From NCBI GenBank assembly GCA_049297675.1, contig JBAQUS010000017.1, positions 7,456 to 71,455 on the forward strand: a stretch of 64,000 nt of DNA, written 5' to 3'. Shown here piece after piece: positions 6,755 to 63,848 of this stretch; the stretch's first letter is position 1; each line of letters opens with the position of its first letter. The notes beneath the pieces were generated by a model. It saw only the letters and a list, made by a program, of their open reading frames with translations. It made no database searches and was not told where the DNA came from. The DNA comes from Minisyncoccia bacterium. GTDB lineage: Bacteria; Patescibacteriota; Minisyncoccia; Phycocordibacterales; DATDWN01. The translations under genes were made by a program, and so were the position numbers.

Positions 6755-6775
6755 TGTGGAAGACGGTCTTCCACA
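6755..6775. repeat. REP family 1 palindrome TGTGGAAGAC-G-GTCTTCCACA
   Basis: 10-bp perfect arms around a central G. Confidence 0.85.
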
Positions 6776-6788
6776 GTAGTATGTATTT

Positions 6789-7445
6789 ATGGAAAGAAAA
6801 ATACCATTGTTTGAGGGGGAATGCTTTCATATATATAACAGAGGTGTGGATAAAAGAAAAATTTTCTTAGATTCACACGACTATAACAGATTTATAATTT
6901 TACTTTACCTTTGTAACTCAAACTTACCTGTTGATCTTCAAAAAATTTTTCGAGAAGGACGAACATTTAATGAGATATTTAGTATTGATAGAGGCGATCG
7001 ACTTATTGACATAGGCGCTTGGGTGTTGATGCCAAATCACTTTCATCTATTGGCCAGGCAGAATTGTAGTGATGGATTGTCTGTTTTTATGAGAAAACTA
7101 TGTACCGGATACTCAAATTACTTTAATCAAAAAAATAATAGATTAGGAGCGCTTTTTCAGGGCAGATTTAAATCTGAACATGCATCTGATGATAGATATT
7201 TAAAGTATTTATTTTCCTATATTCACTTAAATCCAGTTAAACTTATTCCAGGGGAGGAAAATTGGAAGGAGGTTGGTATAAAAAATCCAGATAATGCATC
7301 TAAATTCATAAATAATTATGAATACTCCAGTCTACATGACTACAGAAATGAGACCTTGTTCAGTAGTCTAGTAAATAAGGAACTATTTAGTAGTATCTCT
7401 GACGATTTAAGGGATATGGTTGAAAGCGTGAATAATTGGCTATAA
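6789..7445 (+). CDS. REP-associated tyrosine transposase (RAYT; IS200-like Y1 HUH transposase), copy 1
   Basis: FHIYNRG, AWVLMPNHFHLL (HuH) and YIHLNPVK (catalytic Tyr) motifs, matching the E. coli RAYT pattern. Confidence 0.8.
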   Translation: MERKIPLFEGECFHIYNRGVDKRKIFLDSHDYNRFIILLYLCNSNLPVDLQKIFREGRTFNEIFSIDRGDRLIDIGAWVLMPNHFHLLARQNCSDGLSVFMRKLCTGYSNYFNQKNNRLGALFQGRFKSEHASDDRYLKYLFSYIHLNPVKLIPGEENWKEVGIKNPDNASKFINNYEYSSLHDYRNETLFSSLVNKELFSSISDDLRDMVESVNNWL

Positions 7446-7453
7446 ATAAGCTT

Positions 7454-7476
7454 TTGTGGAAGACGGTCTTCCACAA
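7454..7476. repeat. REP family 1 palindrome TTGTGGAAGAC-G-GTCTTCCACAA
   Basis: 11-bp perfect arms, in the same orientation as 6755-6775. Confidence 0.85.
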
Positions 7477-7511
7477 TTGGCGCAGGGATTATTTATTGGT
7501 ACAATTAAGTT

Positions 7512-8390
7512 ATGAAATTATTAAGAGAAAGTGTTTTTGAAGCAAAAGAGAGAAAAGTCGCTATTGGACATTTCAATATTTCAAACATTGAAGGTTTCTG
7601 GGGGGTTTTCAGAGGTGCGCAGTCACTTGGTGTACCAATAATAATAGGAGTATCTGAAAGTGAGAGGGATTTTATTGGAGTTAATCAAGTCTCTGCTTTG
7701 GTAAAAGCTACCAGAGAGCAGTATGATTATCCGATTTTTCTAAATGCTGATCACACCTATTCATTTGAAAGGGTCAAAGAAGCCATTGATACCGGATTTG
7801 ATTCTGTTATTTTCGATGGGGCGAAACTTTCTTTTGAGGAAAATGTAAAAATTGCAAAGCAGTGCGTTCAGTACGCCAAGGAGTATACAAAGAAAACTGG
7901 CAGGGAAGTTTTGGTTGAAGGGGAGTTGGGTTTTATTGGTCAGTCTTCGAAGATATTGGACGAAGTTCCAGAAGGAGTAATCCTCGACGAAAAATCTTTA
8001 ACTGACCCAGAAAAGGCAAAAGAGTTTGTAGTAGAAACTGGTGTAGACATGCTTGCCCCAGCAGTGGGGAATTTCCACGGTATGCTTCGGGGCGGGATCG
8101 ATCCTAAGCTAAATATAGATAGAATTAGAGCCATTTACGAGAGTACAAATGTTCCATTGGTTCTCCATGGTGGGTCAGGTAACTCAGAAGATGATTTTAG
8201 AGATGGAATAGCAAATGGTATTTCTATAATTCACATAAACACAGAAATACGTATAGCTTACATAGATGCCTTGAGGAAATTTCTAGAAGAAAATCCAGAC
8301 GAGGTAGCCCCATATAAATTTTTGAAGTCTTCAGTTGAGGCAATACAAAAAGTTGTTACTGAGAAACTACAATTATTCAATAACCTTTAA
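7512..8390 (+). CDS. fba: fructose-bisphosphate aldolase, class II
   Basis: AIGHFNISN and LVLHGGSG motifs of class II ketose-bisphosphate aldolases. Confidence 0.9.
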   Translation: MKLLRESVFEAKERKVAIGHFNISNIEGFWGVFRGAQSLGVPIIIGVSESERDFIGVNQVSALVKATREQYDYPIFLNADHTYSFERVKEAIDTGFDSVIFDGAKLSFEENVKIAKQCVQYAKEYTKKTGREVLVEGELGFIGQSSKILDEVPEGVILDEKSLTDPEKAKEFVVETGVDMLAPAVGNFHGMLRGGIDPKLNIDRIRAIYESTNVPLVLHGGSGNSEDDFRDGIANGISIIHINTEIRIAYIDALRKFLEENPDEVAPYKFLKSSVEAIQKVVTEKLQLFNNL

Positions 8391-8428
8391 CTATTGATTT
8401 TTATGGATGATTTGATATACTTCTTCGC

Positions 8429-9070
8429 ATGTTGATTTTGGAAGCACAAAAGAGAGATTTAAAGCTCGACAATAATGCACTGAGAAAGGAGGGTAAAATG
8501 CCTGCTGTTTTTTATGGTAAAAAAACTACCTCAACGCCCATTGTTTTTTTGGAGAAAGATTTTTTAAAGATTTGGCATAAAGCGGGGGAATCAGGTGTTG
8601 TTTCAATAAAAACTCCAGAGGGAGTGGTGGAGACCCTTATTCACGACGTTAATATTGACCCAGTCTCTGACAAGCCAAGACACGCTGATTTTTATGTCTT
8701 CGAAAAGGGAAAGAAACTGGAAGTAGATGTGCCACTTGAATTTATTGGTATCTCTCCGGCCGTAAAGGATCTTGGTGGAATATTGGTTAAAGCTCTGCAT
8801 GAAATAAAAATTAGTTCTGATCCAACAAGTATTCCGCATGATATAAAAGTAGATATTTCAAGTCTAACTGGACTGGATAGTGTTATTTTGGCAGGAGACT
8901 TGAAACTTCCTTCAGGTGTAACTTTGGTTGAGAGAGGAGAGGAGGTTGTTGCGGCGATTACTCAATATAAAGAAGAAATTCCAGAAGTTGCTCCAGTTGA
9001 CCTATCTACTATTGAAGTGGAGAAGAAGGGCAAGAAAGAAGAAGAAGCTCCAGTAGAGGAGGCAAAGTAG
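8429..9070 (+). CDS. rplY: 50S ribosomal protein L25 (Ctc form)
   Basis: N-terminal LEAQKRD...GKMPAVFYG L25 signature with an acidic C-terminal extension. Confidence 0.85.
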   Translation: MLILEAQKRDLKLDNNALRKEGKMPAVFYGKKTTSTPIVFLEKDFLKIWHKAGESGVVSIKTPEGVVETLIHDVNIDPVSDKPRHADFYVFEKGKKLEVDVPLEFIGISPAVKDLGGILVKALHEIKISSDPTSIPHDIKVDISSLTGLDSVILAGDLKLPSGVTLVERGEEVVAAITQYKEEIPEVAPVDLSTIEVEKKGKKEEEAPVEEAK

Positions 9071-9106
9071 CTATAATTGTAACCAATAGAAGTTTAACAC
9101 GTCTAC

Positions 9107-10474: not shown

Positions 10475-10593
10475 GTTCAGTTTATGAAATTCTTAACCGA
10501 AGTAAAGTTGGTGTTGTTTTTTCACGACTTACTTATTGACAAAAAATTATATTATGATACCGTACTTTGAAAAGCAGGTTTTCATAAGTATTA

Positions 10594-13083: not shown

Positions 13084-13153
13084 ATATCTCTTGCAGGATG
13101 GTTAGATTTTTGGTAGCATACCGCTAGTTAGGTTTTATGTAATAATTAGTAAA

Positions 13154-13423: not shown

Positions 13424-13500
13424 TACACGAATTATCCCGAATGACACGAATAGAAGAATTCACTAGTGTCATTTGTTTTTATTCGTAATTCGCGTCGTGT
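13424..13500. repeat. intergenic CGAAT-array element, copy 2
   Basis: ACACGAAT, CCGAAT, ACACGAAT, then ATTCGTAATTCGCG. It fills the whole rpmE-prfA spacer. Confidence 0.65.
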
Positions 13501-13502
13501 TT

Positions 13503-14483: not shown

Positions 14484-14492
14484 CTTACAGGT

Positions 14493-15809: not shown

Positions 15810-15844
15810 TAACTTGGAGGTCTAGCTATCAAATTTCGCGAGAT

Positions 15845-21020: not shown

Positions 21021-21051
21021 TACTACCCCTACATCGGAAGTAGGAGTAGTA
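21021..21051. repeat. REP family 2 palindrome TACTACCCCTAC-ATCGGAA-GTAGGAGTAGTA
   Basis: Imperfect 12-bp arms, 7 nt upstream of the RAYT-2 start. Confidence 0.75.
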
Positions 21052-21058: not shown

Positions 21059-21772
21059 ATGGCAAAAAGAAGGATAAATTTCTCATTAGATGAGTTCTAT
21101 CACTTGTATAATAGAGGAAACAGTAAGCAGAAAATATTTCTTGATGAACAGGATTATGATAGGTTTACCAAACTTCTTTTTCTCTGTAACACCATAAAAA
21201 GTATTAATTATAGGGATGATATCGTTGAAAAAGAAATTGATGCATGGGATTACGATAAAGGAGAAAGTATTGTTTCGATAGGAGCATGGGTTCTAATACC
21301 CAACCACTTTCATATACTTATAACAACACCCCCCACATCGGAAGTCGGGGAGGGGTCGATAAGTTTTTTTATGAAGAAGGTTTGTATTTCATACTCAAAG
21401 TACTTTAATAAAAAGTATGAAAGAGTAGGAGGTTTATTTGAGTCGAATTTTAAGTCTTCACACATAGATGATGATAATTATCTAAAATATATTTTTTCCT
21501 ACATTCACCTTAATCCAGTAAAAAAAGTTTTTCCCAACTGGAAAAATGATGGCATTTTGGATTATGAATTAACAAAAGAGTTTCTGAACAAATATGAGTA
21601 TAGTAGTTACACGGATTATATAAATATAAAAAGAAATCAAAGTAAAATTTTATCGATTGGAGAATTTCCAGACTACTTTTCTGATACTAAATTATTTAAG
21701 GATGAAATTTTTGATTGGCTATCATATACCCCTACTTCCGATGTAGGGGACAATGATGTAGGGGACAATTAG
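21059..21772 (+). CDS. REP-associated tyrosine transposase (RAYT), copy 2
   Basis: FYHLYNRG, AWVLIPNHFHIL and YIHLNPVK motifs. Divergent from copy 1. Confidence 0.8.
   Translation: MAKRRINFSLDEFYHLYNRGNSKQKIFLDEQDYDRFTKLLFLCNTIKSINYRDDIVEKEIDAWDYDKGESIVSIGAWVLIPNHFHILITTPPTSEVGEGSISFFMKKVCISYSKYFNKKYERVGGLFESNFKSSHIDDDNYLKYIFSYIHLNPVKKVFPNWKNDGILDYELTKEFLNKYEYSSYTDYINIKRNQSKILSIGEFPDYFSDTKLFKDEIFDWLSYTPTSDVGDNDVGDN
21329..21355. repeat. REP family 2-like sequence CCCCCCACATCGGAAGTCGGGGAGGGG, in frame inside RAYT-2 (encodes PPTSEVGEG)
   Basis: Shares the ACATCGGAAGT core with the flanking REPs. Confidence 0.6.
21729..21769. repeat. REP family 2 copy in inverse orientation (CCCCTACTTCCGATGTAGGGG) plus a 15-bp tandem duplication (GATGTAGGGGACAAT x2) forming the RAYT-2 C-terminus
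   Basis: Read directly. Encodes ...TPTSDVGDNDVGDN before the stop. Confidence 0.7.
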
Positions 21773-21858: not shown

Positions 21859-21880
21859 CCCCCATATCGGAAGTAGGGGG
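21859..21880. repeat. REP family 2 palindrome CCCCCATATCGGAAGTAGGGGG
   Basis: 5-bp C/G arms around the ATCGGAAGT core. Confidence 0.7.
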
Positions 21881-22639: not shown

Positions 22640-24727
22640 ATGGCGGAGAAAGATAAAAAAGGAAAAGATAATTACGGGGCGGATGCGATACAGATTCTAG
22701 AGGGTTTGGAGCCTGTTAGAAAGCGTCCTGGAATGTACATAGGTACAACAGGCACGGATGGACTCCACCACTTAATCACTGAGATTTTTGACAACTCTCG
22801 TGACGAAGCCATGGGAGGTTTTGCAAACGAGATTGAGGTTACGCTTCTTCCTGGAAATCGTGTGAGAGTTACTGACAATGGTCGAGGTATTCCTGTTGAT
22901 ATTCACAAGCAGACAAAAGTATCAGCACTAGAAACTATCATGACCACCTTGCACGCTGGAGGAAAATTTGGTGGTGAAGGAACTGGATACAAAGTCTCTG
23001 GTGGTCTTCATGGAGTAGGAGCATCAGTTGTAAACGCCCTTTCAATTTATTGTAAAGTTACCGTTCATAAAGATGGTGGTGAATATGTTCAAGAATACTC
23101 TCAGGGAAAGAAAAAAGCGTCAGTTAAAAAAGTTGGCTCAACAAAAAGAAACGGAACTATAGTGGTCTTTGAGCCAGATCCAGCAATATTTCCTGTAATT
23201 GATTTTTCATTTAAGAGAGTGGTTGATCATTTGAGGCAACAAGCATATTTAGTAAAAGGTCTTAGAATAATAGCCAATGATGCTTCGAAGTACGAGGGAA
23301 AAATTAAGGAGGACGAAGTCTTCAATATTTCTGAATTGGAGCTCGAGATTCCGTCCATGTCTTTTTACTTTGAGGGTGGACTTCTCTCTCTTGTGAAGTT
23401 TTATAACTCATCCTACAAGCCGATACACAAAAACGTTTTCTATGTTGAGAAGAAAACAAATGAATGGGAATCGGTGGAGATTTCGCTTCAGTACGTAGAT
23501 GACATTTCTTCACGCATGATTGGTTTTGCAAACAATATTCACACTCCAGAGGGCGGAACACATATTACTGGTTTTAAAACAGCACTGACGCGCTCACTGA
23601 ACGCTTATGGTAGAAAAAATAATTTAATAAAAGAATCAGAGGATAATTTTACAGGCGAGGATGTGCTTGAGGGAATAACAGCAGTTATTTCTATAAAACT
23701 TCGGGAGATACAGTTTGAGGGACAAACAAAAGCTAAGCTCGGAACTGTGGAGGCTCAAGCTAGTGTTTCAAATGTTTTCTCTGAAAGCTTCAACGCATTT
23801 TTAGAGGAAAATCCAGATGACGCTAAAGCTATAATAAACAAAGTAGTTTTGGCCCTCAAGGCCAGAAAGGCAGCCAAGGCGGCAAAAGATTCTGTTCTGC
23901 GAAAGGGAGCACTGGAGGGTATGACACTTCCAGGAAAGCTTGCGGACTGTCAGTCAAAGTTAGCAGAGGATTCGGAACTTTTCATTGTAGAGGGAGACTC
24001 TGCAGGAGGCACTGCAAAAACTGGTCGCGACAGACGAACGCAGGCAATACTTCCGCTTCGAGGAAAAATTCTAAATATTGAGCGTGCCAGACTCGACCGT
24101 ATGCTTGAATCCGAGCAGATTAAAAACCTAGTTATAGCTCTCGGTACTGCCATAGGGGATACATTTGATATTTCCAAACTTCGTTATCACAAAATAATCA
24201 TAGCCACAGATGCTGACGTTGACGGAGCGCACATCCGCACACTTATTTTAACCCTGCTTTACAGATTCTTCAGACCACTTATAGATGGTGGGTTTGTCTA
24301 CATTGCTCAACCACCGCTTTATAAAATAAAAAAAGGTAAGGAAATTTTTTACGCATATTCAGATGAGGAAAAAAATAAAGTTGTAGGTAAGGATGTTGTA
24401 GAAGAGATAGAAGAAGTGGAAAGTGTGAAAGATGAAAGTTTGAAAGTGGAAGGGTCAATTGAAGAGTCTGAGCAAGGGGAGTCCTTGCTCAAGGGCAAAA
24501 CGAAAGATAAGAAAGTTTCGATTCAGAGGTACAAAGGTTTGGGAGAAATGAATGCTGAAGAACTTTGGGAGACAACCATGGACCCTGTAAGGCGTGTTCT
24601 AAAGCAAGTGGCAGTTGAGGACACAGTATCAGCAGACAAAGTTTTCGATATTCTTATGGGTTCAGATGTTCCTGCAAGGAAGTCGTTTATTCAATCCAAT
24701 GCCACTAAGGCAAATTTAGATGTTTAG
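22640..24727 (+). CDS. gyrB: DNA gyrase subunit B
   Basis: GHKL ATPase motifs (GLHGVGASVVNALS), a TOPRIM domain, and a C-terminal RYKGLGEMN. Confidence 0.95.
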   Translation: MAEKDKKGKDNYGADAIQILEGLEPVRKRPGMYIGTTGTDGLHHLITEIFDNSRDEAMGGFANEIEVTLLPGNRVRVTDNGRGIPVDIHKQTKVSALETIMTTLHAGGKFGGEGTGYKVSGGLHGVGASVVNALSIYCKVTVHKDGGEYVQEYSQGKKKASVKKVGSTKRNGTIVVFEPDPAIFPVIDFSFKRVVDHLRQQAYLVKGLRIIANDASKYEGKIKEDEVFNISELELEIPSMSFYFEGGLLSLVKFYNSSYKPIHKNVFYVEKKTNEWESVEISLQYVDDISSRMIGFANNIHTPEGGTHITGFKTALTRSLNAYGRKNNLIKESEDNFTGEDVLEGITAVISIKLREIQFEGQTKAKLGTVEAQASVSNVFSESFNAFLEENPDDAKAIINKVVLALKARKAAKAAKDSVLRKGALEGMTLPGKLADCQSKLAEDSELFIVEGDSAGGTAKTGRDRRTQAILPLRGKILNIERARLDRMLESEQIKNLVIALGTAIGDTFDISKLRYHKIIIATDADVDGAHIRTLILTLLYRFFRPLIDGGFVYIAQPPLYKIKKGKEIFYAYSDEEKNKVVGKDVVEEIEEVESVKDESLKVEGSIEESEQGESLLKGKTKDKKVSIQRYKGLGEMNAEELWETTMDPVRRVLKQVAVEDTVSADKVFDILMGSDVPARKSFIQSNATKANLDV

Positions 24728-25392: not shown

Positions 25393-26673
25393 CTAACTCT
25401 TTGACTTGATTTCTTCAAGGAGCTTTTTTAGGAGGTCTTCTGTTGTTATTTGTCCAAGTTTTCCACTATCTCGTGACTCAAGTGTAACTACTTCAGCCTC
25501 TACTTCTTTATCACCAATAACGATCCAGTAGGGGATTTTTTCCTCTTTTGTCTTTCGAACCTTTGTCCCCAGATTTTCATCATTATCATCAATTTCAGCT
25601 CGAATCCCAGCATCTATAAGTATGTCAAAGACAGTCCTTGACATCGTATTATGACTTTCTCTTACGGGTATGATCTTAACCTGAGTTGGCGAAAGCCAAA
25701 GAGGAAAGTTGCCTCCATATTTTTCTATAAGAAAAGCCATAATTCTTTCAATTGATCCTATAGAAGATCTGTGCACAACTACAGCTTCTTTTTCCTTACC
25801 TTCATTATTTGTGTAAACCAGATTAAATCTTTTCGGCATTACGAAGTCGTACTGTACAGTGAAAGCTGTATCTTCTTTACCTCGAACATCTTTCATCTGA
25901 ATATCTATTTTTGGTCCATAAAATGCCGCCTCATCTTCAACCTCGATAAACGGAACATCTTGCTCCTTCAAAACTTGTCTAAGCGCTCCTTCAGCTTCAT
26001 CCCAGGCCTTATCATCTTTGTAATATTTTTTATCGTCTTTTCGATCTCCTAGTGAAAGTCTGTACCAGTAGTCTTCTCCCTTTTTTAGACCAAATTTATT
26101 TTGGGCGAAAGAAATTAATTCCAATGCTCCTCTGACTTCTTGTATAGCTTGATCCCTGTCAGTACATATAATATGGGCGTCAGACAAACAAAAAGATCGC
26201 GTTCTTTCTATACCTGTTAAGACTCCAGAAAGTTCGTATCGATAAAGTTTCGCAATCTCAGCAATTTTAAATGGGAGCTCCCGATAACTCCGCGGTTTTG
26301 AAAGGTAGAGTTCAAAGTGATGTGGACAAGTCATCGGTCGTAGCATGAATTCCTCACCATCAACATCAATAGGAGAATACATCGAGCTTTTGTAGTAAGG
26401 GTAGTGTCCGGATTTTTTGTATAAATCTATCTTAGCAATGTCTGGTGTGGAGACGTGTTTATACCCACGCTTTATTTCTTCTTCTATTGCAAATTTCTCA
26501 AGCTCTCTTCTTATTGTCGCGCCCTTATCTGTGTAAAGGGGAAGTCCTTTTCCTACAATGTCAGAAAAGACAAAAAGTCCCAGTTCTTTACCGATAACCC
26601 TATGATCATTTTTGTCTAATCCCACATTTTCTTTTTCATCCTCTTTTTCTTTCATATTGAAAAATAATAGCAT
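25393..26673 (-). CDS. thrS: threonine--tRNA ligase, minimal form lacking N-terminal editing domains
   Basis: ThrRS catalytic-core motifs (RPMTCPHH, HRSSIGSIER) and an anticodon-binding domain. Only 426 aa. Confidence 0.85.
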   Translation of the reverse strand: MLLFFNMKEKEDEKENVGLDKNDHRVIGKELGLFVFSDIVGKGLPLYTDKGATIRRELEKFAIEEEIKRGYKHVSTPDIAKIDLYKKSGHYPYYKSSMYSPIDVDGEEFMLRPMTCPHHFELYLSKPRSYRELPFKIAEIAKLYRYELSGVLTGIERTRSFCLSDAHIICTDRDQAIQEVRGALELISFAQNKFGLKKGEDYWYRLSLGDRKDDKKYYKDDKAWDEAEGALRQVLKEQDVPFIEVEDEAAFYGPKIDIQMKDVRGKEDTAFTVQYDFVMPKRFNLVYTNNEGKEKEAVVVHRSSIGSIERIMAFLIEKYGGNFPLWLSPTQVKIIPVRESHNTMSRTVFDILIDAGIRAEIDDNDENLGTKVRKTKEEKIPYWIVIGDKEVEAEVVTLESRDSGKLGQITTEDLLKKLLEEIKSKS

Positions 26674-30877: not shown

Positions 30878-31519
30878 ATGAATTATGTTGTCGGTATAGA
30901 TGAAGTTGGAAGGGGACCACTGGCTGGGCCTGTCACTGTCTGTCTGGTTTGTTGCGAAGATAGATTATATAGAAAGTTAAAGCAAAATAGAAGTTTACCC
31001 AAATTAGGTCAAGACAGCAAAAAAATCTCAGAAAAAAATCGCCAGAAATACTCCTTGACCCTGAAGTCCCTAATGTCAAAGACGGTCTTTGACATTTCCA
31101 AAGGGGACCCCTTTGGGAATGAGATTGGAATGTGGTATGTAGTTAATCATGTTTCAAACAGAGTAATTGACCAAAAGGGAATTTCTTTTGCGATTGAAGG
31201 GGCTATTGCCACAGGAATTAAGGGGTTAAATTTAGATGCAAAAAATTGCATAATTTTGCTTGACGGAGGATTAAGAGTGCCGAAAAATTTTAAACAGAAA
31301 ACAATAATAAAGGGCGACGAGAGGGAAAAAATAATTAGCTGGGCTTCGATTTTGGCAAAAGTTTCGAGGGATGATCTGATGATAAATTTGAGTAGGAAGT
31401 ACTCATTTTATGGTTTTGATAAACACAAAGGCTATGGCACCAAACACCACAGAGAAATGATCCTGGAATTTGGCTTAAGCAAAATTCACCGCAAAACCTT
31501 CTGCAAAAAATTGATTTAG
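30878..31519 (+). CDS. rnhB: ribonuclease HII
   Basis: GIDEVGRGPLAGPV active-site motif. Confidence 0.9.
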   Translation: MNYVVGIDEVGRGPLAGPVTVCLVCCEDRLYRKLKQNRSLPKLGQDSKKISEKNRQKYSLTLKSLMSKTVFDISKGDPFGNEIGMWYVVNHVSNRVIDQKGISFAIEGAIATGIKGLNLDAKNCIILLDGGLRVPKNFKQKTIIKGDEREKIISWASILAKVSRDDLMINLSRKYSFYGFDKHKGYGTKHHREMILEFGLSKIHRKTFCKKLI

Positions 31520-34243: not shown

Positions 34244-35257
34244 GTGAAAAGGAAAAATATTTCTGGAGGTAATACTCAGGACGTTGTTATTTATAGAAGT
34301 TCTGAAGGCAACGTAACTTTAAGAGCTGACATAAGTAAGGACACTATATGGGCGACACAAGCACAGATTGCTGAACTTTTCGGTGTTGATAGAACAGTAA
34401 TAACCAAACATATTCGTAATATTTTTCGTGAAAGAGAACTTCAGGAAAAGGCAGTATGTGCAAAATTTGCACATACTGCAGGTGATGGGAAAACATATAA
34501 TGTTCAGTATTATAATCTTGATGCAGTAATTTCAGTTGGATATAGAATAAATTCTAAACAAGCAACACAGTTTAGAATTTGGGCAACTGAAACTCTCCAT
34601 GATTACATTATTCATGGAATGGCAGTAAATACAGAAAGAATAAAGAAATTAAATAACTCTAAACTTCAAGATTTAAATAGTAAAATTTCTTTCATACAGG
34701 AAACAATAAGAAGAAAACAGCTTGACCAAGAAGAGGTAGATAGTTTACTTTCAGTTATTCGTGACTATGCAAATTCATGGACTTTTCTTCAGAAATACGA
34801 TGATGGGAGTTTGGAACTGACAAAGAGTAAAACAAAAGAAAAATCTGTTTTAGAGTATGGTTTTGTCAGGAGTTCGATTGATGAATTGACTAGAAAATTG
34901 AGACAAAAAGATGAGGCGGGCGATTTGTTTGGTAATGAAAGGGACGAGACTTTCAAGGGAATATTAAAGGGAATTTATCAGTCATTTGGTAGTAAGGAAA
35001 TTTATGATGGTTTGGAGGTTAAGGCTGCACATCTTCTATATTTTATAATAAAAGATCATCCATTTTCCGATGGCAACAAACGCATTGGCTCTTTTCTGTT
35101 CATTCTATTTTTAGAATTAAATAAAATATTATATAACAGAAAAGGTGATAGAAAAATTACAGATAATACACTTGTTGCTCTAGCACTTTTGGTTGCTGAA
35201 AGTGACCCAAAAGAAAAAGAAACAATGGTAGCTCTAATAACAAATCTCTTAAAATAA
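34244..35257 (+). CDS. RhuM-family N-terminal domain fused to a Doc/Fic domain (HPFSDGNKR)
   Basis: RhuM-like IWATQAQIAELFGV...YNLDAVISVGYRINS, and the C-terminal Fic/Doc motif HxFxDGNKR. GTG start. Confidence 0.75.
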   Translation: MKRKNISGGNTQDVVIYRSSEGNVTLRADISKDTIWATQAQIAELFGVDRTVITKHIRNIFRERELQEKAVCAKFAHTAGDGKTYNVQYYNLDAVISVGYRINSKQATQFRIWATETLHDYIIHGMAVNTERIKKLNNSKLQDLNSKISFIQETIRRKQLDQEEVDSLLSVIRDYANSWTFLQKYDDGSLELTKSKTKEKSVLEYGFVRSSIDELTRKLRQKDEAGDLFGNERDETFKGILKGIYQSFGSKEIYDGLEVKAAHLLYFIIKDHPFSDGNKRIGSFLFILFLELNKILYNRKGDRKITDNTLVALALLVAESDPKEKETMVALITNLLK

Positions 35258-37637: not shown

Positions 37638-37670
37638 ATGTGATAAGATAGGAAATAGAAGGGGGTGGGT

Positions 37671-38033
37671 ATGTGTATTATCACAGCTATCGAGTGCGAA
37701 GTCTGCAACGACCCAATCATTGCAGTTGAACCTAGAGAAGAAAAAGTTGTAGTTACAATACTGTGTTTCAGGTGTCTGACTTTGTTAACCTACTCGATCG
37801 ACGAGTTGGCTAAATTGAACAAGGTCAGGTGCGGGAATATGAAATGCAGAAATGTAGTCATAACTACGCACAGAAAGAGTGATGAAGTAATTATCACTCT
37901 TGAATGCTCGAGTTGCCCGAATATCTCTAGTTTCTCACTTGACGGCCTGCAAAGATCGGTCGGACTAAGGTCTGATTACGACTGCATTGATCAGGCAGAA
38001 ATTGTCTACCAGATTAGCCATCTCGTCTACTAG
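37671..38033 (+). CDS. hypothetical double zinc-ribbon protein (~120 aa), GC-elevated
   Basis: Four CxxC pairs (CEVC, CFRC, CGNMKC, CSSC). G-rich RBS 5 nt upstream. Confidence 0.4.
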   Translation: MCIITAIECEVCNDPIIAVEPREEKVVVTILCFRCLTLLTYSIDELAKLNKVRCGNMKCRNVVITTHRKSDEVIITLECSSCPNISSFSLDGLQRSVGLRSDYDCIDQAEIVYQISHLVY

Positions 38034-38152: not shown

Positions 38153-38200
38153 TACTCATACACTTAACTTATGCTATAGCATAAGTTAAGTGTATGAGTA
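38153..38200. repeat. 48-bp perfect palindrome (24-bp arms TACTCATACACTTAACTTATGCTA) in a convergent intergenic region
   Basis: Read directly. Flanked by A-rich direct repeats (TAGGTAAAA x2, ATAAAG.GTAAAA x2). Confidence 0.85.
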
Positions 38201-38324: not shown

Positions 38325-40250
38325 TTATGAATTAACAAGAGAGTAGTCGAGCACTCGACGTTCGAGGTCGGCTGAAACAACTTTGAACCTGACTTTGTCG
38401 CCCAATGTGAATTTCTTACCACTACTCTGTCCCTTGATTGTGTAGTTTTTTTCGTCTAGTGACCAAAAGTCATCACCCAAATCCTTTAGCTTTATCATTC
38501 CTTCGCATTTTGTTTCTTTCTCCTCAACATAAATACCCCATTCTGTCACGCCCATTATGGTGCCATCGAATTCCTCACCAACATGCTCTTGCATGTATTC
38601 TACCTGTTTGTACTTTATAGAAGTTCTCTCGGCATCTGTTGCTTTTTTTTCAAGCTCGCTCGATGCTAGACAAAGGGTTTCATATTTTTGAAATTCATCA
38701 AGTTCTACTTTTCCACCCTTGAGCTCTCGCTCTAGAAATCTGTGAACTAATACGTCCGGGTATCTTCTTATGGGTGAAGTAAAGTGCGTATAGTAAGCGA
38801 AAGCTAAAGAGAAATGACCAATGTTTTTTGTCGAGTAAACTGCCTTTTGCATACTTCTGACAGTAGCCGTATTTATGAGTTCCTCATTTGGTGTACCTTT
38901 TACTTCAGCTAAGAGTCGATTCAAATCCTTCGACGTTACTTCACCATCTTTGTTATTTAGATCAAAGCCTAAAGCTTTTAGAAAAATTGCCAAATCTTTT
39001 ATCCTATCTTTGTCTGGATTAGCATGAATACGATAGACAGATTGTTTACCTTTTAAACCTTTGTTTTGTGACATAAAAATATGTTTTGCCACAGCACGGT
39101 TAGCTAGGAGCATAAATTCCTCCACAAGTTTATGAGTATCAAGTCTTGATTTTCTGTAAACAGAAACTGGTTTACCTTTTTCATCTAATACAAACTTTAC
39201 TTCATCAGTATCAAAAACCATTGCTCCAGATTTTATTTTATTTTTTTCAAATTTCTGAGCTATTTCTCTTAGTTTTCTTAGCTCTTTTTGAAATGGGTCT
39301 TGGAGTTTTCCATCAATAACTTCCTGTGCTTCCTCATATGTGAACCTCTTGTCGGAATGTATAACTGTTCGTCCGAACCATTCGTCAAAAACTTTTCCGC
39401 TTCCATCCATTTTAAAAATAGCAGAAAAAGTAAATTTATCCTCGTCTGGGTTTAATGAACAAAGATCATTAGATAAAACTTCAGGGAGCATGGGAATTGT
39501 TCTATCTACCAAATAAACAGAGAGTCCTCTTTTTTCGGCTTCATGATCTAGCTCTGTACCAGGTGTTACAAAATATGAGACGTCAGCGATATGTACACCT
39601 ATCTCGTATGTATCATTCCCTAAATCCACAAATGAAATGGCGTCGTCAAAATCCTTTGCATCAAATGGGTCAATTGTCATAGTAGTGACATCTCTCATAT
39701 CACGACGGTTTTTTATTTCACTTTCGAAATGACTTCTGTATTCCTTTTTTATTTTCTCTGCTTCTTCTTCAACTTTTTCTGGAAATTCAACACGAAATCC
39801 ACGCTCTAGAACAATAGACTCCATCTCTGTGTTGTTCTCTCCCTTCTTTCCTATTACCATTACCAGCTCTCCCGCTAGTGTTTGCCAGTCGACTATTTTA
39901 ACTAGAACCTTTTCATTCTTTATAACATTCTCATCGTTTGGCAAGGAAATATCCACATAAACTCTTTTATCATCGGGAACAGCGTAAACTTTTCCGTCAT
40001 GAATATCTATTGTTCCAACAAACTCATCTCTGGACCTCTTTACTATTTTTTCCACTTTACCCTGTTCACGGTTTCTTATTTTATTTCCCAAAAGAGAGAC
40101 AATCACAATGTCTCCAGAAAATGCCTTGTTTATATTTTCTGGTTGAATCTCTATACTCTCGTCTTTTTTCCTGCTCAGTGGATCAGGGTTAAAAAAACCC
40201 ACACCTTTTGTGTTCACAGATATCTGTCCCTCGAGGGTCTTTTTAGTCAT
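38325..40250 (-). CDS. rnr: ribonuclease R (RNB family exoribonuclease)
   Basis: Cold-shock/OB domain, RNB domain motifs, and a C-terminal S1 domain. Confidence 0.9.
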   Translation of the reverse strand: MTKKTLEGQISVNTKGVGFFNPDPLSRKKDESIEIQPENINKAFSGDIVIVSLLGNKIRNREQGKVEKIVKRSRDEFVGTIDIHDGKVYAVPDDKRVYVDISLPNDENVIKNEKVLVKIVDWQTLAGELVMVIGKKGENNTEMESIVLERGFRVEFPEKVEEEAEKIKKEYRSHFESEIKNRRDMRDVTTMTIDPFDAKDFDDAISFVDLGNDTYEIGVHIADVSYFVTPGTELDHEAEKRGLSVYLVDRTIPMLPEVLSNDLCSLNPDEDKFTFSAIFKMDGSGKVFDEWFGRTVIHSDKRFTYEEAQEVIDGKLQDPFQKELRKLREIAQKFEKNKIKSGAMVFDTDEVKFVLDEKGKPVSVYRKSRLDTHKLVEEFMLLANRAVAKHIFMSQNKGLKGKQSVYRIHANPDKDRIKDLAIFLKALGFDLNNKDGEVTSKDLNRLLAEVKGTPNEELINTATVRSMQKAVYSTKNIGHFSLAFAYYTHFTSPIRRYPDVLVHRFLERELKGGKVELDEFQKYETLCLASSELEKKATDAERTSIKYKQVEYMQEHVGEEFDGTIMGVTEWGIYVEEKETKCEGMIKLKDLGDDFWSLDEKNYTIKGQSSGKKFTLGDKVRFKVVSADLERRVLDYSLVNS

Positions 40251-40765: not shown

Positions 40766-41080
40766 ATGGAACTAGACAAAAAATTTTTGGAATTTATTAT
40801 AAAGGAACTCGTTGATAATCCTTCTGACGTAAAAATAAACAGGACTGTAGATGAGATGGGTGTACTCATGACACTGGATGTAAACCCTGCTGACATGGGA
40901 AAGATTATCGGTAGAGAAGGAAATACCGCAAAGGCGATCAGAACACTCCTTCGAGTAGTCGGGATGAAAAATAACGCCAGAGTAAACCTAAAGATAAACG
41001 AACCAGAAGGGGCGGGAAGAGAGGCAAAAATGAGTGCTTCTAAGTCCCTCGACGAAGCAATGTCCGACCTAAATCTCTAA
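40766..41080 (+). CDS. KH-domain RNA-binding protein (KhpA/YlqC-like)
   Basis: KH GxxG motif (IIGREGNTAKAIRTLL). Conserved position after rpsP. Confidence 0.8.
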   Translation: MELDKKFLEFIIKELVDNPSDVKINRTVDEMGVLMTLDVNPADMGKIIGREGNTAKAIRTLLRVVGMKNNARVNLKINEPEGAGREAKMSASKSLDEAMSDLNL

Positions 41081-41099: not shown

Positions 41100-41120
41100 T
41101 GTGGAAGACCGTCTTCCACA
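41100..41120. repeat. REP family 1 palindrome TGTGGAAGAC-C-GTCTTCCACA (opposite orientation to the copies at RAYT-1)
   Basis: Same 10-bp arms as 6755-6775, with central C instead of G. 20 nt after the KH gene stop. Confidence 0.85.
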
Positions 41121-41136
41121 TATTTGTCGTGTTGAC

Positions 41137-41165
41137 TTGACAATGGATTTGTGTGGTGATACAAT
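41137..41165 (+). promoter_or_regulatory. sigma70-like promoter TTGACA-N17-TACAAT inside the rpsP-trmD insert
   Basis: Hexamers and spacing read directly. Confidence 0.4.
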
Positions 41166-41214
41166 GGATAGCGGAACAACCCAAGCTGGTGCTAAGTGCA
41201 CCGAGGAGGATGGA

Positions 41215-41400
41215 ATGAACTGCAAAGGTGAAATCATGACCGGCGGTGAAGTGGCCAGTGTGTTTGCATTCTCGTTTGCCTTGCTGGTGGTCGGAGTACT
41301 CGTCTTCGGGCAGGTGCCGATTGCCCAGGCAATCGAGACAGGCTGGGGCTTCAGTGCCGCCCAGCCCATTCTCAAACTCAAAATTGTGTGGGGAGGGTGA
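41215..41400 (+). CDS. hypothetical small membrane protein (61 aa), GC-rich
   Basis: GAGGAGG RBS and one TM helix. ORF-track frame 41101..41400 trimmed to this ATG. Confidence 0.35.
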   Translation: MNCKGEIMTGGEVASVFAFSFALLVVGVLVFGQVPIAQAIETGWGFSAAQPILKLKIVWGG

Positions 41401-41401
41401 G

Positions 41402-41542
41402 ATGCCAAAAACCTTCTGGCTTTGTCTCTCGTTCATTCTCGTCACGGTTGCTGCCGCAGTGGTCTTTATCTCTTACGAGGTGAAGTACGAGCACAACAAC
41501 CCCGATCGGCCAATCACTCCCATCGCCTTTCGAAGGGCGTGA
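41402..41542 (+). CDS. hypothetical small membrane protein (46 aa), GC-rich
   Basis: GGGGAGGG RBS overlapping the upstream stop, and one TM helix. Confidence 0.3.
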   Translation: MPKTFWLCLSFILVTVAAAVVFISYEVKYEHNNPDRPITPIAFRRA

Positions 41543-41639
41543 GAATTCATGAATGCCGGAGGTGAGGTCTTAGACCACGCCTCCGGTTCGTCGTATATAC
41601 AATTTCATGCATTTGTGATATAAATCAATAGGAGGTAAC

Positions 41640-41747
41640 ATGACCACTATTGCTTTTCTTCTCTTACTTAGTCGATTGAAGATTGTACGGAAATTCATGG
41701 CGTTCTGGAGGCTACTCACTGATCTAGAGAAAAGTGCTGGTCTCTAA
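41640..41747 (+). CDS. possible micro-ORF (35 aa) with an AGGAGG RBS
   Basis: RBS-ATG spacing is ideal. Followed by the perfect hairpin CGAGGAGGAC-ATAA-GTCCTCCTCG (41748-41771). Confidence 0.2.
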   Translation: MTTIAFLLLLSRLKIVRKFMAFWRLLTDLEKSAGL

Positions 41748-41785
41748 CGAGGAGGACATAAGTCCTCCTCGAACTATTTAATATT

Positions 41786-58456: not shown

Positions 58457-58534
58457 AATGTAGGTTAAAGTTTTATCTGAAAACTTTAAATCTTTACCTT
58501 ATCAACTTTATAACTTTATACTTTTAACTACAAT

Positions 58535-61562: not shown

Positions 61563-61780
61563 TAGCTCGGGTCTTTTTACTCAATCTCATCGTCTAAAAT
61601 TTAAAAATAATCATCACCTTAGCACTAACTAAGGCTCTTCATATTTTTAAATTTTATACGCGATCTTGAGCAAAAATCCTCCGAGTTTCTTACTTGATAT
61701 CGAGGAGGATACAAAATATCCCATAAAATAAGGTTATTCTAGTTATTAAGATAGAAAAAATTAAGTTCGTCAAAAAATAC

Positions 61781-61808
61781 TTGACAAAAAAAATAACAGT
61801 GCTAGAAT
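61781..61808 (+). promoter_or_regulatory. near-consensus sigma70 promoter TTGACA-N16-TAGAAT
   Basis: Hexamers read directly. AT-rich context just upstream of a GC-rich gene. Confidence 0.55.
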
Positions 61809-61822
61809 ACATATGGAACAGA

Positions 61823-61843
61823 TTGATCGCATTCCGCGATCAA
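61823..61843. promoter_or_regulatory. palindromic operator-like site TTGATCGC-ATTCC-GCGATCAA between the -10 element and the RBS
   Basis: 8-bp perfect arms, positioned at about +15 to +35 of the predicted transcript. Confidence 0.5.
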
Positions 61844-61855
61844 AGGAGGATTCGG

Positions 61856-62506
61856 ATGGCTACCAAAGCGACTGTCAACGAGACCACCGTGCGCCAGGCC
61901 TTTGTGGACTACGCACGTGAGGCGACCCTTGCCGTCGGCAAGGACGGAGTACACCCTCGGTTTGTCGGGTTTTACATCGTTCACGAGGTCACCGATCTCG
62001 TGAATGTAGCGAAGCTCTCATACAAGGAGGGGCGCTTCGATGAGGCATTCGAGAAGATCACCAGTGCGAGGAAGTGGCTTCTCGGTGGTCAGCGCAAGTA
62101 CGTGCTGAGTTCGGTCGAGAAGTACTTCGAGGCTCGTCTCGAGGATCTACGATACTCCGAGCTCGAGCAGGATATCCTCGACGGCGTCAACTCGAAGATG
62201 AGGGAATTCGAGTCAGCTCTCGTTGCCCTCAAGGGTGGCAATGCCAGCCTCGAAGAAGTGACCGTCATGTATTGGGTGCTCAACGATGCAATCGAGAATG
62301 CACCCAAGCTCCAGGCAGAGCGCGACGAGCATCGTCGCAAGCTCGCCGACGAGGATCGTTCCCGCAAGCAACGCGAGAAGATGCTCGCCAAGAAGGCACG
62401 CGAGGCCGAAGAGGCAGAGAAGAGCCGTCAGGCTCAGATCGAAGCCAACGCTCGCTGGCGACAGGAGCGTGAGAGCTTCGTCGACGAGCTCTTCGCGGGG
62501 CTCTAG
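61856..62506 (+). CDS. hypothetical protein (216 aa), strongly GC-rich (~58% by eye), with a charged coiled-coil-like C-terminus
   Basis: AAGGAGG RBS 6 nt before the ATG. Codon usage is dominated by GAG, CTC and CGC, unlike the backbone. No recognised domain. Confidence 0.55.
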   Translation: MATKATVNETTVRQAFVDYAREATLAVGKDGVHPRFVGFYIVHEVTDLVNVAKLSYKEGRFDEAFEKITSARKWLLGGQRKYVLSSVEKYFEARLEDLRYSELEQDILDGVNSKMREFESALVALKGGNASLEEVTVMYWVLNDAIENAPKLQAERDEHRRKLADEDRSRKQREKMLAKKAREAEEAEKSRQAQIEANARWRQERESFVDELFAGL

Positions 62507-62534
62507 TACACAAGGTCGGCAAGGCCGACGAAGT

Positions 62535-62567
62535 CCGGAGAGGACAGCAAACTCTCCGGGCTTTTTT
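62535..62567 (+). terminator. intrinsic terminator CCGGAGAG...CTCTCCGG followed by GCTTTTTT
   Basis: 8-bp stem plus a T6 run. A second hairpin, GTCGGC-AAG-GCCGAC, sits just upstream. Confidence 0.6.
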
Positions 62568-62624
62568 AGTACAAAAATTTTATTTGTGATATTATTACGT
62601 TAGAAATCTTAGAGAGGAGTAAGG

Positions 62625-62756
62625 ATGTCACAGAGGACAAACACTACTATACCTTTCTCGTTAGGGTTCTTCGCCGTTTCATCCGTCTTTGTTGCGGGGG
62701 CAACATTAGTAGCACGTGGGCTAGTGATTGTTCTCAGTCAGTACTTCAACTTCTAG
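62625..62756 (+). CDS. hypothetical micro-membrane protein (43 aa)
   Basis: GAGGAG RBS and one TM helix. GC-elevated. Confidence 0.3.
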   Translation: MSQRTNTTIPFSLGFFAVSSVFVAGATLVARGLVIVLSQYFNF

Positions 62757-62766
62757 CGAGGTAAAG

Positions 62767-62925
62767 ATGGAAAAAAAGAAAGAAGTAATATGTAGTCCGG
62801 TTTGCGATAGTCGCAACATCGGTCCGTACTACTCAACAGGCTACAACATCTGCCGGAAATGCGGGAAACTTCTTGATGAGATCTTGCTCCCCCCAGAAGG
62901 GTCAGAAAGGTTGGTAAAAAAGTAA
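62767..62925 (+). CDS. hypothetical zinc-ribbon micro-protein (52 aa)
   Basis: CSPVC...CRKC Cys pairs, a GAGG RBS, and a terminator downstream. Confidence 0.35.
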   Translation: MEKKKEVICSPVCDSRNIGPYYSTGYNICRKCGKLLDEILLPPEGSERLVKK

Positions 62926-62930
62926 CAAGT

Positions 62931-62982
62931 GCTTGCGGGGGAGGGTAAAGTCAGTTTTCTTTACCCCACGCAAGGCTTTTTT
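62931..62982 (+). terminator. intrinsic terminator CTTGCGGGG.AGGGTAAAG...CTTTACCCCACGCAAG followed by TTTTTT
   Basis: Long imperfect hairpin plus a T6 run. Confidence 0.55.
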
Positions 62983-62987
62983 GTTAC

Positions 62988-63010
62988 ATGCCAAGGGGCA
63001 CCCTTGGCAT
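62988..63010. repeat. REP family 3 palindrome ATGCCAAGGG-GCA-CCCTTGGCAT
   Basis: 10-bp perfect arms with loop GCA. Confidence 0.85.
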
Positions 63011-63050
63011 AAGTGAATAATTATGGAAATATCACGACTTGGTCCTTTAA

Positions 63051-63072
63051 ATGCCAAGGGTGCCCCTTGGCA
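63051..63072. repeat. REP family 3 palindrome ATGCCAAGGG-TGC-CCCTTGGCA (inverse orientation)
   Basis: Same arms with loop TGC. Confidence 0.85.
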
Positions 63073-63174
63073 AGTAGGAAGTCAGTATTTAGTTATACAT
63101 CCCCGTCTTTCGTAGAATATTTTTCTCGAAACTTATCAATATTGTTTAAGGGCTTTTTCAGTAAGTCCACTACT

Positions 63175-63795
63175 TTACATTGGATCATTAGATAAGTTTA
63201 TTGTTTCGTCTAAGAAATCGTTACCGTCAAACAGTTCTTCAATAATTTGTCTATAAACAAGTATGAAATTCCTATCAGAAGTGTAGTCGATATAACTACT
63301 CCATTTATAATCATTAATATTACTTACAAGTCCATCTTTCAAGGGATTTGTGTGAATGTAGGCAGAAGTCCACATCAATTGTTCGTTTGAATTTATAACT
63401 TTAGACTTGAACTGATCTTGAAATAGATGACCAACTCTTTTATATTTTCTATTAATGTACATTGCATAACTTGTACAAAGTTTTAATATTAAATTTGAAA
63501 TGGGAATATTTTTCGATTGCTCGATCAATAAATGAAAATGATTTGGCATTAGACAAAAAGAGTGTAATTTAAATGCATTTTTTCCTAGCCCTTCTATCCT
63601 AATTCTGGAGTGAGGGAGATTGGTCAGTACATTTTTGTTTAATTCGGCTTCCTCAAACCCCAAAATTAGGCCTAGTCTAAATAAAAATGCCCTGTAATCC
63701 TGCTGGTCAAAGAATATTTTTTCTTTATTGTTACCCCTATTGTAGGCATGGAAGATTGAACCATCACCAACATCTTTGTAATCTCTTAGTTTCAT
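63175..63795 (-). CDS. REP-associated tyrosine transposase (RAYT), copy 3
   Basis: FHAYNRG, FCLMPNHFHLL and YIHTNPLK motifs. Confidence 0.8.
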   Translation of the reverse strand: MKLRDYKDVGDGSIFHAYNRGNNKEKIFFDQQDYRAFLFRLGLILGFEEAELNKNVLTNLPHSRIRIEGLGKNAFKLHSFCLMPNHFHLLIEQSKNIPISNLILKLCTSYAMYINRKYKRVGHLFQDQFKSKVINSNEQLMWTSAYIHTNPLKDGLVSNINDYKWSSYIDYTSDRNFILVYRQIIEELFDGNDFLDETINLSNDPM

Positions 63796-63826
63796 AGCCC
63801 ATTATAATCTAGGATTGTTAATGTAA

Positions 63827-63848
63827 TGTCAAGGGTGCCCCTTGGCAA
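63827..63848. repeat. REP family 3 palindrome TGTCAAGGG-TGC-CCCTTGGCAA (one G-T mismatch in the stem)
   Basis: ~30 nt upstream of the RAYT-3 start. Confidence 0.75.

Follow-up and report, generated by a model that had tools for sequence, protein, structure and literature searches.

Three diverged RAYT-like genes, each bracketed by its own hairpin family, in a contig of a Minisyncoccia bacterium

Three HUH/Y1 genes and their hairpins

The subject of this analysis is a 64,000-nt stretch of DNA from a Minisyncoccia bacterium (contig JBAQUS010000017.1 of assembly GCA_049297675.1, positions 7,456 to 71,455; hereafter the window), which carries three genes, R1, R2 and R3, for HUH/Y1 proteins resembling the REP-associated tyrosine transposases (RAYTs; REP stands for repetitive extragenic palindrome), each accompanied by copies of a short hairpin of its own (families Fam1, Fam2 and Fam3; Table 1). 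The window, whose G+C content is about 38%, was extended by 9.8 kb and 7.5 kb with contigs of NCBI assembly GCA_049296815.1, which match it with 100% identity at the window end and 99.95% identity at the window start, giving about 81 kb of readable sequence. A protein identical to R1 (100%) is found at NCBI in a metagenome-assembled genome (MAG) labeled "Minisyncoccia bacterium", i.e. within Patescibacteria, for which candidate phyla radiation (CPR) is another name. To judge by this taxon, the host genome is probably tiny.

The original prediction, made from the letters of the DNA and a list of open reading frames (ORFs), had placed three Y1 genes in the window, and their coordinates proved exact and their ORFs intact; a phmmer search over all six-frame ORFs revealed no fourth Y1-like ORF in the window. 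The products are indeed divergent, with 35-45% identity to each other (45% for R1/R2, 35% for R1/R3). All three score above the gathering threshold of 23 bits with the Pfam profile PF01797 (Y1_Tnp; 28.9 bits for R1, 25.1 for R2, 44.4 for R3), the check that had been proposed for them, and Y1_Tnp is the only Pfam domain they contain. Their sole NCBIfam match is NF047646 (REP_Tyr_transpos), with 50.6, 48 and 65.1 bits, respectively. The RAYT motif set claimed earlier is present and needs only small corrections: the N-terminal motif reads [FY]HxYNRG, the HUH strand [MI]PNHFH[LI]L, and the tyrosine motif YIH[LT]NP[VL]K (YIHLNP in R1 and R2, YIHTNP in R3). The other key motifs are NHFH, FQ or FE, and a C-terminal tail with SS. 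In an alignment of R1-R3 with 34 database relatives (n=37), the residues H84, H86, Tyr144 and Asn148 (Y---NP) are invariant, and we predict that R1-R3 are catalytically intact.

In a sequence search of the PDB, R1 matched only 4ER8, the E. coli TnpA_REP protein with its REP hairpin (E=0.0035); the same entry is the top match for R1, R3 and the family profile, with transposases of the IS200 family ranked lower or not found. Because these E-values are weak (0.0035 to 0.36), we relied on a comparison of folds to decide on the relationship. The AlphaFold2 model of R1, the sole protein modelled, has a mean pLDDT of 91.9, and Foldseek again identified 4ER8 as its best match (E=7.7e-7), followed by the TnpA proteins of IS608 and ISDra2 (2VJV, 2A6O and 2XO6 among the top entries). 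Taken together, motifs and model support the classification of R1-R3 as probable HUH/Y1 enzymes of the RAYT type (TnpA_REP, class 2, Y---NP), not of the IS200 type. A database search with R1 retrieved 6,315 protein clusters at E<=1e-5. Among the 120 matches listed for R1, all the named ones belong to a Patescibacteria group or to an "unclassified bacterium", and the closest relative apart from the identical protein, again among the matches listed, shares 66% identity with it.

The hairpins at the three loci measure about 21 nt (stem 9-10 bp, loop 1-3 nt) and are present in at least two copies per gene, one located 12-34 nt 5' of the start codon and one at or just past the stop codon. None of the three family patterns gave a single match in 100 dinucleotide-preserving shuffles of the window, and a scan of the window that allowed up to 5 mismatches found no hairpin family beside the gene of another family; the claim that each gene is bracketed by its own palindrome family is thereby borne out. 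Perfect hairpins with a stem of at least 8 bp number 25 in the window, versus about 10 in the shuffles. A scan against Rfam at the gathering thresholds returned one tRNA only, and therefore none of the palindromes falls into a curated RNA family. As regards the GT[AG]G foot of canonical REPs, Fam1 holds GTGG inside its stem (a double foot, GTGG...CCAC), Fam2 has GTAG in its 3' arm, and Fam3 has none.

The families differ in the arrangement of their copies. The Fam2 copies at 21729 and 21859 form an inverted pair with a 109-nt spacer, and the Fam3 copies at 62989 and 63052 form a REPIN-like inverted doublet with a 42-nt spacer; for Fam1 no inverted doublet is present. Fam2 palindromes flank R2 as described in the original prediction, but two copies, at 21330 and 21729, lie inside the coding sequence (CDS) of R2 and had gone unnoticed; R1 and R3 contain no in-gene copy. 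At the 3' end of R2 there is also a 15-nt tandem duplication (GATGTAGGGGACAAT x2, positions 21740-21769), which begins within a Fam2 hairpin and provides the final 10 codons ahead of the stop.

Two regulatory roles for the hairpins were considered and set aside. Both flanking Fam1 hairpins are called terminator-like (6753-6777 on the plus strand, 7476-7454 on the minus strand), because a T-rich tail follows them; the calls point outward, and no gene reads towards either of them on those strands. Rho-independent termination is nevertheless insufficient as an explanation: at R2 and R3 no flanking hairpin is called, the only calls in the R2 region are at the in-gene copy 21330, and the Fam1 calls face away. 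The idea that the 5' arm of the upstream hairpin serves as the -35 element of a leaderless promoter is speculation only, as promoter-like sites are no commoner than in shuffles and the candidate at R1 is not called.

Table 1. Genes of RAYT type and hairpins in the window (positions count from the first letter of the window)
Feature	Positions	Strand	Description
R1, RAYT-like HUH/Y1 gene	6789-7445	+	218 aa, intact ORF; HUH H84/H86, predicted catalytic Tyr144 in YIHLNP
R2, RAYT-like HUH/Y1 gene	21059-21772	+	237 aa, intact ORF
R3, RAYT-like HUH/Y1 gene	63175-63795	-	206 aa, intact ORF
Fam1 hairpin 5' of R1	6755-6775	+	TGTGGAAGAC-G-GTCTTCCACA; ends 13 nt ahead of ATG
Fam1 hairpin 3' of R1	7455-7475	+	same sequence and orientation as 5' copy; starts 9 nt past stop codon
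Solo Fam1 hairpin	41100-41120	-	exact match, 34 kb from R1, in spacer after khpA (40766-41080)
Fam2 (CCCCTACATCGGAAGTAGGGG-like) hairpin 5' of R2	21026-21046	+	CCCCTACATCGGAAGTAGGAG; ends 12 nt ahead of ATG
Degenerate Fam2 copy within R2 CDS	21330-21350	+	encodes extra residues ..TPPTSEVGEG.. just past HUH strand
Fam2 copy within last codons of R2 (C-terminal tail)	21729-21749	-	inverted orientation
Fam2 copy 3' of R2	21859-21879	+	86 nt past R2 stop
Fam3 hairpin 5' of R3	63827-63847	-	TGCCAAGGGGCACCCTTGACA on minus strand, 1 mismatch to TGCCAAGGG-GCA-CCCTTGGCA
Fam3 hairpin 3' of R3	63052-63072	-	orientation as 5' copy
Second 3' Fam3 hairpin	62989-63009	+	inverted vs copy at 63052
Two adjacent hairpins in rnhB (30878-31519)	31072-31096, 31098-31116	+	AATGTCAAAGAC-G-GTCTTTGACATT and CCAAAGGGG-A-CCCCTTTGG
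Hairpin in pfkB (5725-6717, minus)	5864-5882		CCAAAGGG-T-ACCCCTTTGG; 1 base off second rnhB hairpin
Hairpin in gyrB (22640-24727)	24469-24491		in lineage-specific linker of ~35 aa, absent from S. aureus GyrB
Hairpin in class II aminoacyl-tRNA synthetase gene (25393-26673, minus)	25621-25645		4 mismatches to first rnhB hairpin

Protein-hairpin pairing among homologues and at the R1 site

A scan of JGI metagenome contigs provided 80 loci encoding homologues of these proteins, 75 of them with usable flanks. For each of the latter we compared 250 nt of upstream flank with 250 nt of downstream flank, recorded the longest segment that the two share without mismatch, and treated 134 ORFs of similar size from the same loci as controls. 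A flank-to-flank match of at least 17 nt was found for 54 of the 75 homologues (72%) versus 2 of the 134 control ORFs (1.5%), and the shared segment of 37 of those 54 homologues includes a perfect stem of 7 bp or more. The palindrome differs at every homologous locus. Typically, 8-12 bp of stem enclose a loop of 1 or 3 nt. Between the upstream copy and the ATG there are 13-35 nt (median 27.5 nt), and the stop codon is no more than about 40 nt from the downstream copy, which often overlaps the last codons; the loop-proximal core of the hairpin is semi-conserved (A-R-G-N-C). Across 38 loci, protein identity is correlated with the identity of the hairpin arms (Spearman 0.255, permutation p=0.0025). 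Specific pairing of each RAYT with its palindrome, as originally proposed for the window, is upheld by the flank matches and by this co-divergence, and private pairing is supported as a conserved, co-diverging property of the family.

Copies inside the gene are also a recurrent feature. Among the 36 homologues with strong flank matches, there are 15 in which the gene incorporates, in frame, a near-exact copy (at most 15% mismatches) of the hairpin that flanks it, compared with 0.3% for foreign hairpins. These copies sit at aa 46-58 or at aa 82-91, directly past the HUH motif, 8 of the 15 at the latter site. In the clade of R2-like proteins the second site is marked by an insertion of 2-14 aa, at which many members have their own hairpin; the copy at 21330 in R2 is an instance. 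A TAnnnT hexamer precedes the ATG by 4-9 nt in 29 of 36 loci, a count made without a control.

Some of the metagenome contigs resemble the window in other respects. Two Patescibacteria contigs contain two diverged RAYT-like genes with their own hairpins within 8-13 kb: L072 (1715-2374 and 6946-7620) and L084 (5995-6690 on the plus strand, 1077-1775 on the minus strand). On contig L057 an R1-like gene (1497-2135) lies between tktC and pfkB, i.e. one spacer away from the position occupied by R1.

R1 itself is located between pfkB (minus strand) and a class II aldolase gene, here termed the PfkB-FBA site. The four R1 homologues at 58-63% identity with readable context occupy the same site in other genomes (P0008, P0014, P0012 and P0007, with 63%, 60%, 59% and 58% identity to R1). 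Orthologues of R1 at this site are present on contigs L099, L101 and L102, and their hairpins are related to that of R1 without being the same. The arms are GTGGAAGAC/GTCTTCCAC in the window, GTAAAGGAC/GTCCTTTAC in L099 and GTAAAGGTC/GACCTTTAC in L101, in each case on both sides of the gene, and GTGAAGGAC/GTCCTTCGC in L102, in the downstream copy only. The differences are compensatory stem changes, and they are found in both flanking copies wherever both are readable.

On contigs L095, L097 and L100, of similar relatedness, the PfkB-FBA site is empty: the spacer measures 46-50 nt and no hairpin remnant was found in it. In a neighbor-joining tree of three flanking housekeeping proteins, which includes two filled genomes only (the window and L099), these two are not sisters (1.3% bootstrap), and L099 groups with the empty L100 (84%). 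Among the 80 loci, pairs of RAYT genes with at least 81% identity share flanks that have diverged to 74-82% nucleotide identity, i.e. they represent the same locus, and no near-identical RAYT gene was seen in a different context. Long-lasting residence, vertical inheritance and sporadic loss make this pattern one of the RAYT kind, not of the IS kind. The neighbors of R2 and R3 are shared by none of the 80 homologous loci.

Copies away from the genes and hairpins inside housekeeping genes

The solo Fam1 hairpin at 41100 is the only copy in the window that is far from its gene. Beyond the window, a Fam3 variant with changes in both arms that compensate each other (AGTGTCAAGGGTGCCCCTTGACACT) lies inside the truB frame (aa 200-208) on contig L105 of assembly GCA_049296815.1 (1777-1801), about 8.2 kb from R3. 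The 17 kb adjoining the window contain no further RAYT and no RAYT pseudogene. When the Fam1 19-mer was searched across a collection of genomes from 185,579 species, it was found as 12 singletons in unrelated phyla, which we judged to be chance matches. The density of distant copies is about 1 per 100 kb per family.

The solo Fam1 copy stands at the left edge of a stretch of about 660 nt (41121-41785) between khpA and trmD that has no recognisable gene; two ORFs of about 98 aa scanned there have no Pfam match, and the stretch contains two further GC-rich hairpins (41318 and 41748). In the usual bacterial gene order, the gene between khpA and trmD is rimM.

Several GC-rich hairpins in the style of those at the RAYT genes sit in frame within other genes of the window. 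The most instructive case is rnhB, in which two adjacent hairpins encode the peptides MSKTVFDI and SKGDPFG, exactly at the place where the protein exceeds E. coli RNase HII by about 16 residues. Among 30 CPR orthologues the insertion at this site varies: at least 8 do not have it, and others display different hairpin-encoded peptides there (e.g. MSKSLFDI+PQGESLGG, MSRRHLDI+YQGLPLVT); within the insertion the pairs Lys..Phe and Arg..Leu switch together, as expected of compensatory changes in a stem. In pfkB the hairpin corresponds to the codons for AKGVPFGE, and the length of the protein is unchanged with respect to 7 orthologues. At the corresponding codons, the pfkB orthologue on contig L100 bears another palindrome that is likewise perfect, CCCAAGGTG-T-CACCTTGGG. 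Further examples are found in gyrB and in a gene for a class II aminoacyl-tRNA synthetase (Table 1). No RAYT cognate to the hairpins in rnhB, pfkB, gyrB or the synthetase gene was found in the sequence examined (about 81 kb). In this gene-dense genome, the hairpins distant from RAYT genes are mostly located in frame within protein-coding genes.

Interpretation, known relatives and further observations

We interpret the three loci as REPtron-like cassettes, each consisting of a RAYT gene of the HUH/Y1 kind (TnpA_REP, class 2) and at least two private hairpins of about 21 nt, and we estimate the probability of this reading at about 0.72. By homology to E. coli TnpA_REP and the TnpA of IS608, each RAYT would most likely recognise its own hairpin in single-stranded DNA, and would cut and rejoin the DNA beside it. 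Such cutting and joining might occasionally seed new hairpin copies, and RAYT activity could keep the local copies matched to the protein.

Several observations weigh against this interpretation. All three proteins, with their 48-65.1 bits, miss the equivalog cut-off of 80 bits of the NCBIfam REP_Tyr_transpos model, and the canonical GT[AG]G foot starts just 1 of 38 hairpins of the family. Distant copies are few: in the approximately 81 kb there is one for Fam1, one variant for Fam3 and none for Fam2, and the 343 kb around 45 homologous loci contain 6 that are separated from the gene by over 400 nt, three of the 6 by no more than 600 nt. For comparison, flanking 16-mers number 57 and 140 per replicon in Bertels groups 2 and 3 and 12-14 per replicon in groups 1 and 4, according to the published survey (PMC5581495). 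Finally, the R1 cassette has been lost or gained more than once, because the filled genomes are not sisters while L099 pairs with the empty L100. Support for the status of Fam1-Fam3 as REP families is weak, given that there are few copies at a distance from the genes and that these are non-canonical. This part of the original prediction stands insofar as the proteins match Y1_Tnp and two of the three palindromes (Fam1 and Fam3) recur elsewhere in the genome; it is too strong insofar as a REP family implies many dispersed copies, Fam2 does not recur in the approximately 81 kb, the copies are scarce, the foot is non-canonical and the NCBIfam scores stay below the cut-off.

The alternative that survives best, and which we nevertheless regard as unlikely, is that the three loci are ordinary autonomous insertion sequences (ISs) of the IS200 type, in which the hairpins are subterminal ends and the whole unit of 0.75 kb transposes, without a separate REP population. 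The compactness of the loci agrees with it, as the hairpins hug the gene in units of about 720-850 bp and nearly all hairpin copies are located at a gene. It would also account for the presence or absence of the cassette in the PfkB-FBA spacer among similarly related genomes, with empty sites that lack a hairpin scar, and for the multiplicity of the genes (three in 64 kb of the window, two each in L072 and L084). The proteins argue for a different assignment: they have Y---NP (class 2) and not Y---Q, and comprise 206-237 aa with a C-terminal tail and not about 150 aa (PMC6006769). The three copies in the window are merely 35-45% identical, and the nearest relative of R1 among the database matches listed is at 66%. 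The four R1 relatives with readable context (58-63%) are at the same chromosomal site, and the most similar pairs of the 80 loci share diverged flanks, which speaks for residence rather than for transposition of a unit. Solo hairpins without a gene exist, and to the left and to the right of the gene stands the same palindrome rather than two distinct ends.

Slightly less probable again is a purely cis-regulatory role, according to which the palindromes act at the promoter, as an operator or insulator, and at the 3' end, as a terminator-like element, the protein regulates its own expression, and the hairpins are not mobilised. Such a role would agree with the short and fixed distance of the upstream hairpin from the ATG (median 27.5 nt), with the TAnnnT hexamer before the ATG in 29 of 36 loci, with the terminator-like Fam1 hairpins and the -35-like hexamers supplied by the arms of the upstream R3 hairpin, and with the conserved positions of the in-gene copy. 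Some of this support is reduced by the finding that promoter-like matches are no commoner than in shuffles and by the lack of a control for the TAnnnT count. Also against such a role speak the exact or compensated copies that are 8-34 kb away, beside or inside unrelated genes, the hairpins of the same style embedded in rnhB, gyrB, pfkB and the aminoacyl-tRNA synthetase gene, and the full catalytic site that the enzyme retains.

That genes and palindromes adjoin by mere coincidence is practically inconceivable: the general excess of perfect hairpins in the window (25 versus about 10 in shuffles) speaks for it, but 0 of 100 shuffles gave any match to each family and the flanks match in 72% of homologues versus 1.5% of controls, and on these two comparisons we ruled chance juxtaposition out.

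To the interpretation as REPtron-like cassettes we add a more tentative proposal, which we consider possible but rather improbable as it stands, namely that the RAYT/hairpin system of Patescibacteria is adapted to scant intergenic space: hairpins would be accommodated chiefly in frame in tolerant loops of protein-coding genes, the RAYT gene among them, and enzyme-driven replacement (concerted evolution, as opposed to plain insertion) would match all copies of a genome to the resident enzyme. Hints of concerted evolution come from orthologous or related loci, between which the two flanks change in step with each other and with the in-gene copy, from the rnhB site, where different species have different structure-preserving hairpins, and from the pfkB codons, which bear two palindromes in two genomes.

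Among characterized systems, the closest in overall organization is the REPtron, exemplified by E. coli yafM (4ER8) and by P. fluorescens SBW25 with its three RAYT-REPIN pairs. The HUH and Y---NP core is common to it and to R1-R3, and 4ER8 is the nearest solved structure by sequence (R1 and R3) and by fold (R1). In both cases a private palindrome brackets the gene, a genome contains several diverged paralogues with a repeat of their own, paralogue identity is low and inheritance mostly vertical, and inverted doublets occur (here beside R3 and R2). The differences are that the R1-R3 hairpins lack the GT[AG]G foot, that the NCBIfam scores are below the cut-off, that FQ replaces the conserved WQ, and that dispersed copies are few in comparison with the 57 and 140 flanking 16-mers per replicon of Bertels groups 2 and 3. 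In addition, the host is a Patescibacteria MAG, and this group is absent from both surveys of RAYTs (PMC6006769, PMC5581495).

Two subclasses of class 2 share part of the features. Members of subclass 2.4 (Bertels group 4; Cyanobacteria and Bacteroidetes) resemble R1-R3 in the NH[IFV]H form of the HUH motif, in an in-frame REP copy between HuH and Y (PMC6006769), as in R2 at 21330-21350 and in 8 homologues, in a "double-foot" palindrome (Fam1 only: GTGG...CCAC), and in the low count of flanking repeats (about 14 per replicon for subclass 2.4), but they have WQ and YIxNNP whereas R1-R3 have FQ or FE and YIH[LT]NP. The TIRtron/TIRYT elements, i.e. subclass 2.1 (Bertels group 1; PMC3733652), share the motif series NH[YF]H / FQ / Y[IV]HLNP / SS tail, exactly with R1 and nearly so with R2 and R3, together with a length of about 238 aa, private terminal repeats of which some are self-complementary, and repeat families that are absent or of small size; in Koribacter versatilis, three TIRYT genes each have a different repeat (PMC3733652). 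In contrast to R1-R3, however, subclass 2.1 is described without REP-like hairpins and with a C-terminal DnaA_C/HTH-like domain, whereas Pfam detects Y1_Tnp only in R1-R3, and its GGGGWSAS repeat motif is missing from the R1-R3 flanks, which are compact perfect hairpins. By comparison with the published descriptions, the class 2 motif set of R1-R3 appears most like subclass 2.1, and the hairpins seem to behave as those of subclass 2.4.

The IS200/IS605 transposases (TnpA_IS200, subclass 1.1; IS608, ISDra2) have the same fold (Foldseek ranks 2-30), hairpins at either end of a unit that measures about 0.7 kb, and a mode of hairpin recognition on single-stranded DNA that is presumably the same. 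They differ in having Y---Q and a protein that consists of the core alone (about 150 aa), as opposed to Y---NP and 206-237 aa with an extra C-terminal tail (PMC6006769). For the loci described here, no near-identical copies were found in the window or among the 80 homologous loci; they have fixed orthologous positions and carry identical palindromes as the two end hairpins.

Most individual features of the window thus have precedents. Genomes with several distinct RAYTs that have a private repeat apiece are known from Pseudomonas, Stenotrophomonas and Koribacter (PMC6006769, PMC3733652, PMC5581495), and both in-gene REP copies and REPs within ORFs have already been described (PMC6006769, PMC3733652). 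The three co-resident pairs, which the original prediction regarded as unusual, are so only with respect to the trend of class 2 genes to favor large genomes, with none in Mollicutes (PMC6006769); genomes with multiple RAYTs are documented, and the search with R1 alone retrieved more than 6,300 clusters. In this lineage the RAYT/hairpin arrangement looks routine. What we describe is a known type of element (RAYT/REP) in a bacterial group for which the literature searched does not describe it: no link of RAYT, REPIN or IS200 to Patescibacteria, CPR or Parcubacteria was found there, nor in the survey by Quentin and co-workers (PMC6006769).

RAYT-REP systems have been characterized almost entirely in Proteobacteria, Cyanobacteria and Bacteroidetes, and the window together with the more than 6,300 related clusters represents a large, apparently undescribed radiation of RAYT-like genes. 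Thousands of diverged protein-hairpin pairs constitute a covariation data set for the way in which Y1 enzymes read hairpin DNA, and the three pairs in one cell offer a clean in vitro test of cross-specificity. The scarcity of dispersed copies bears on the question of why RAYTs persist, be it because they serve the host or because they replicate REPs, and a REP-type system in a minimal genome is of value in its own right.

Three further structured segments were noted. A perfect AT-rich palindrome of 48 nt (38153-38200; 24-bp arms, no loop) lies between the convergent ORFs 37665-38033 (plus strand) and 38325-40250 (minus strand), and its sequence is unrelated to the RAYT hairpins. Another perfect palindrome with a 14-bp stem, GCAGTATGTGCAAA-A-TTTGCACATACTGC (34451-34479), is situated within the ORF 34244-35257 and occurs as a single copy. 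Beyond the window end, contig L105 contains a gene-free stretch of 830 nt (4412-5241) with a very G+C-rich core and four strong hairpins, which may be a structured RNA gene; one of the hairpins, CACTTGGAAGCT-C-AGCTTCCAAGTG, shares TGGAAGCT/AGCTTCCA with a hairpin at 1350-1369 of the same contig.

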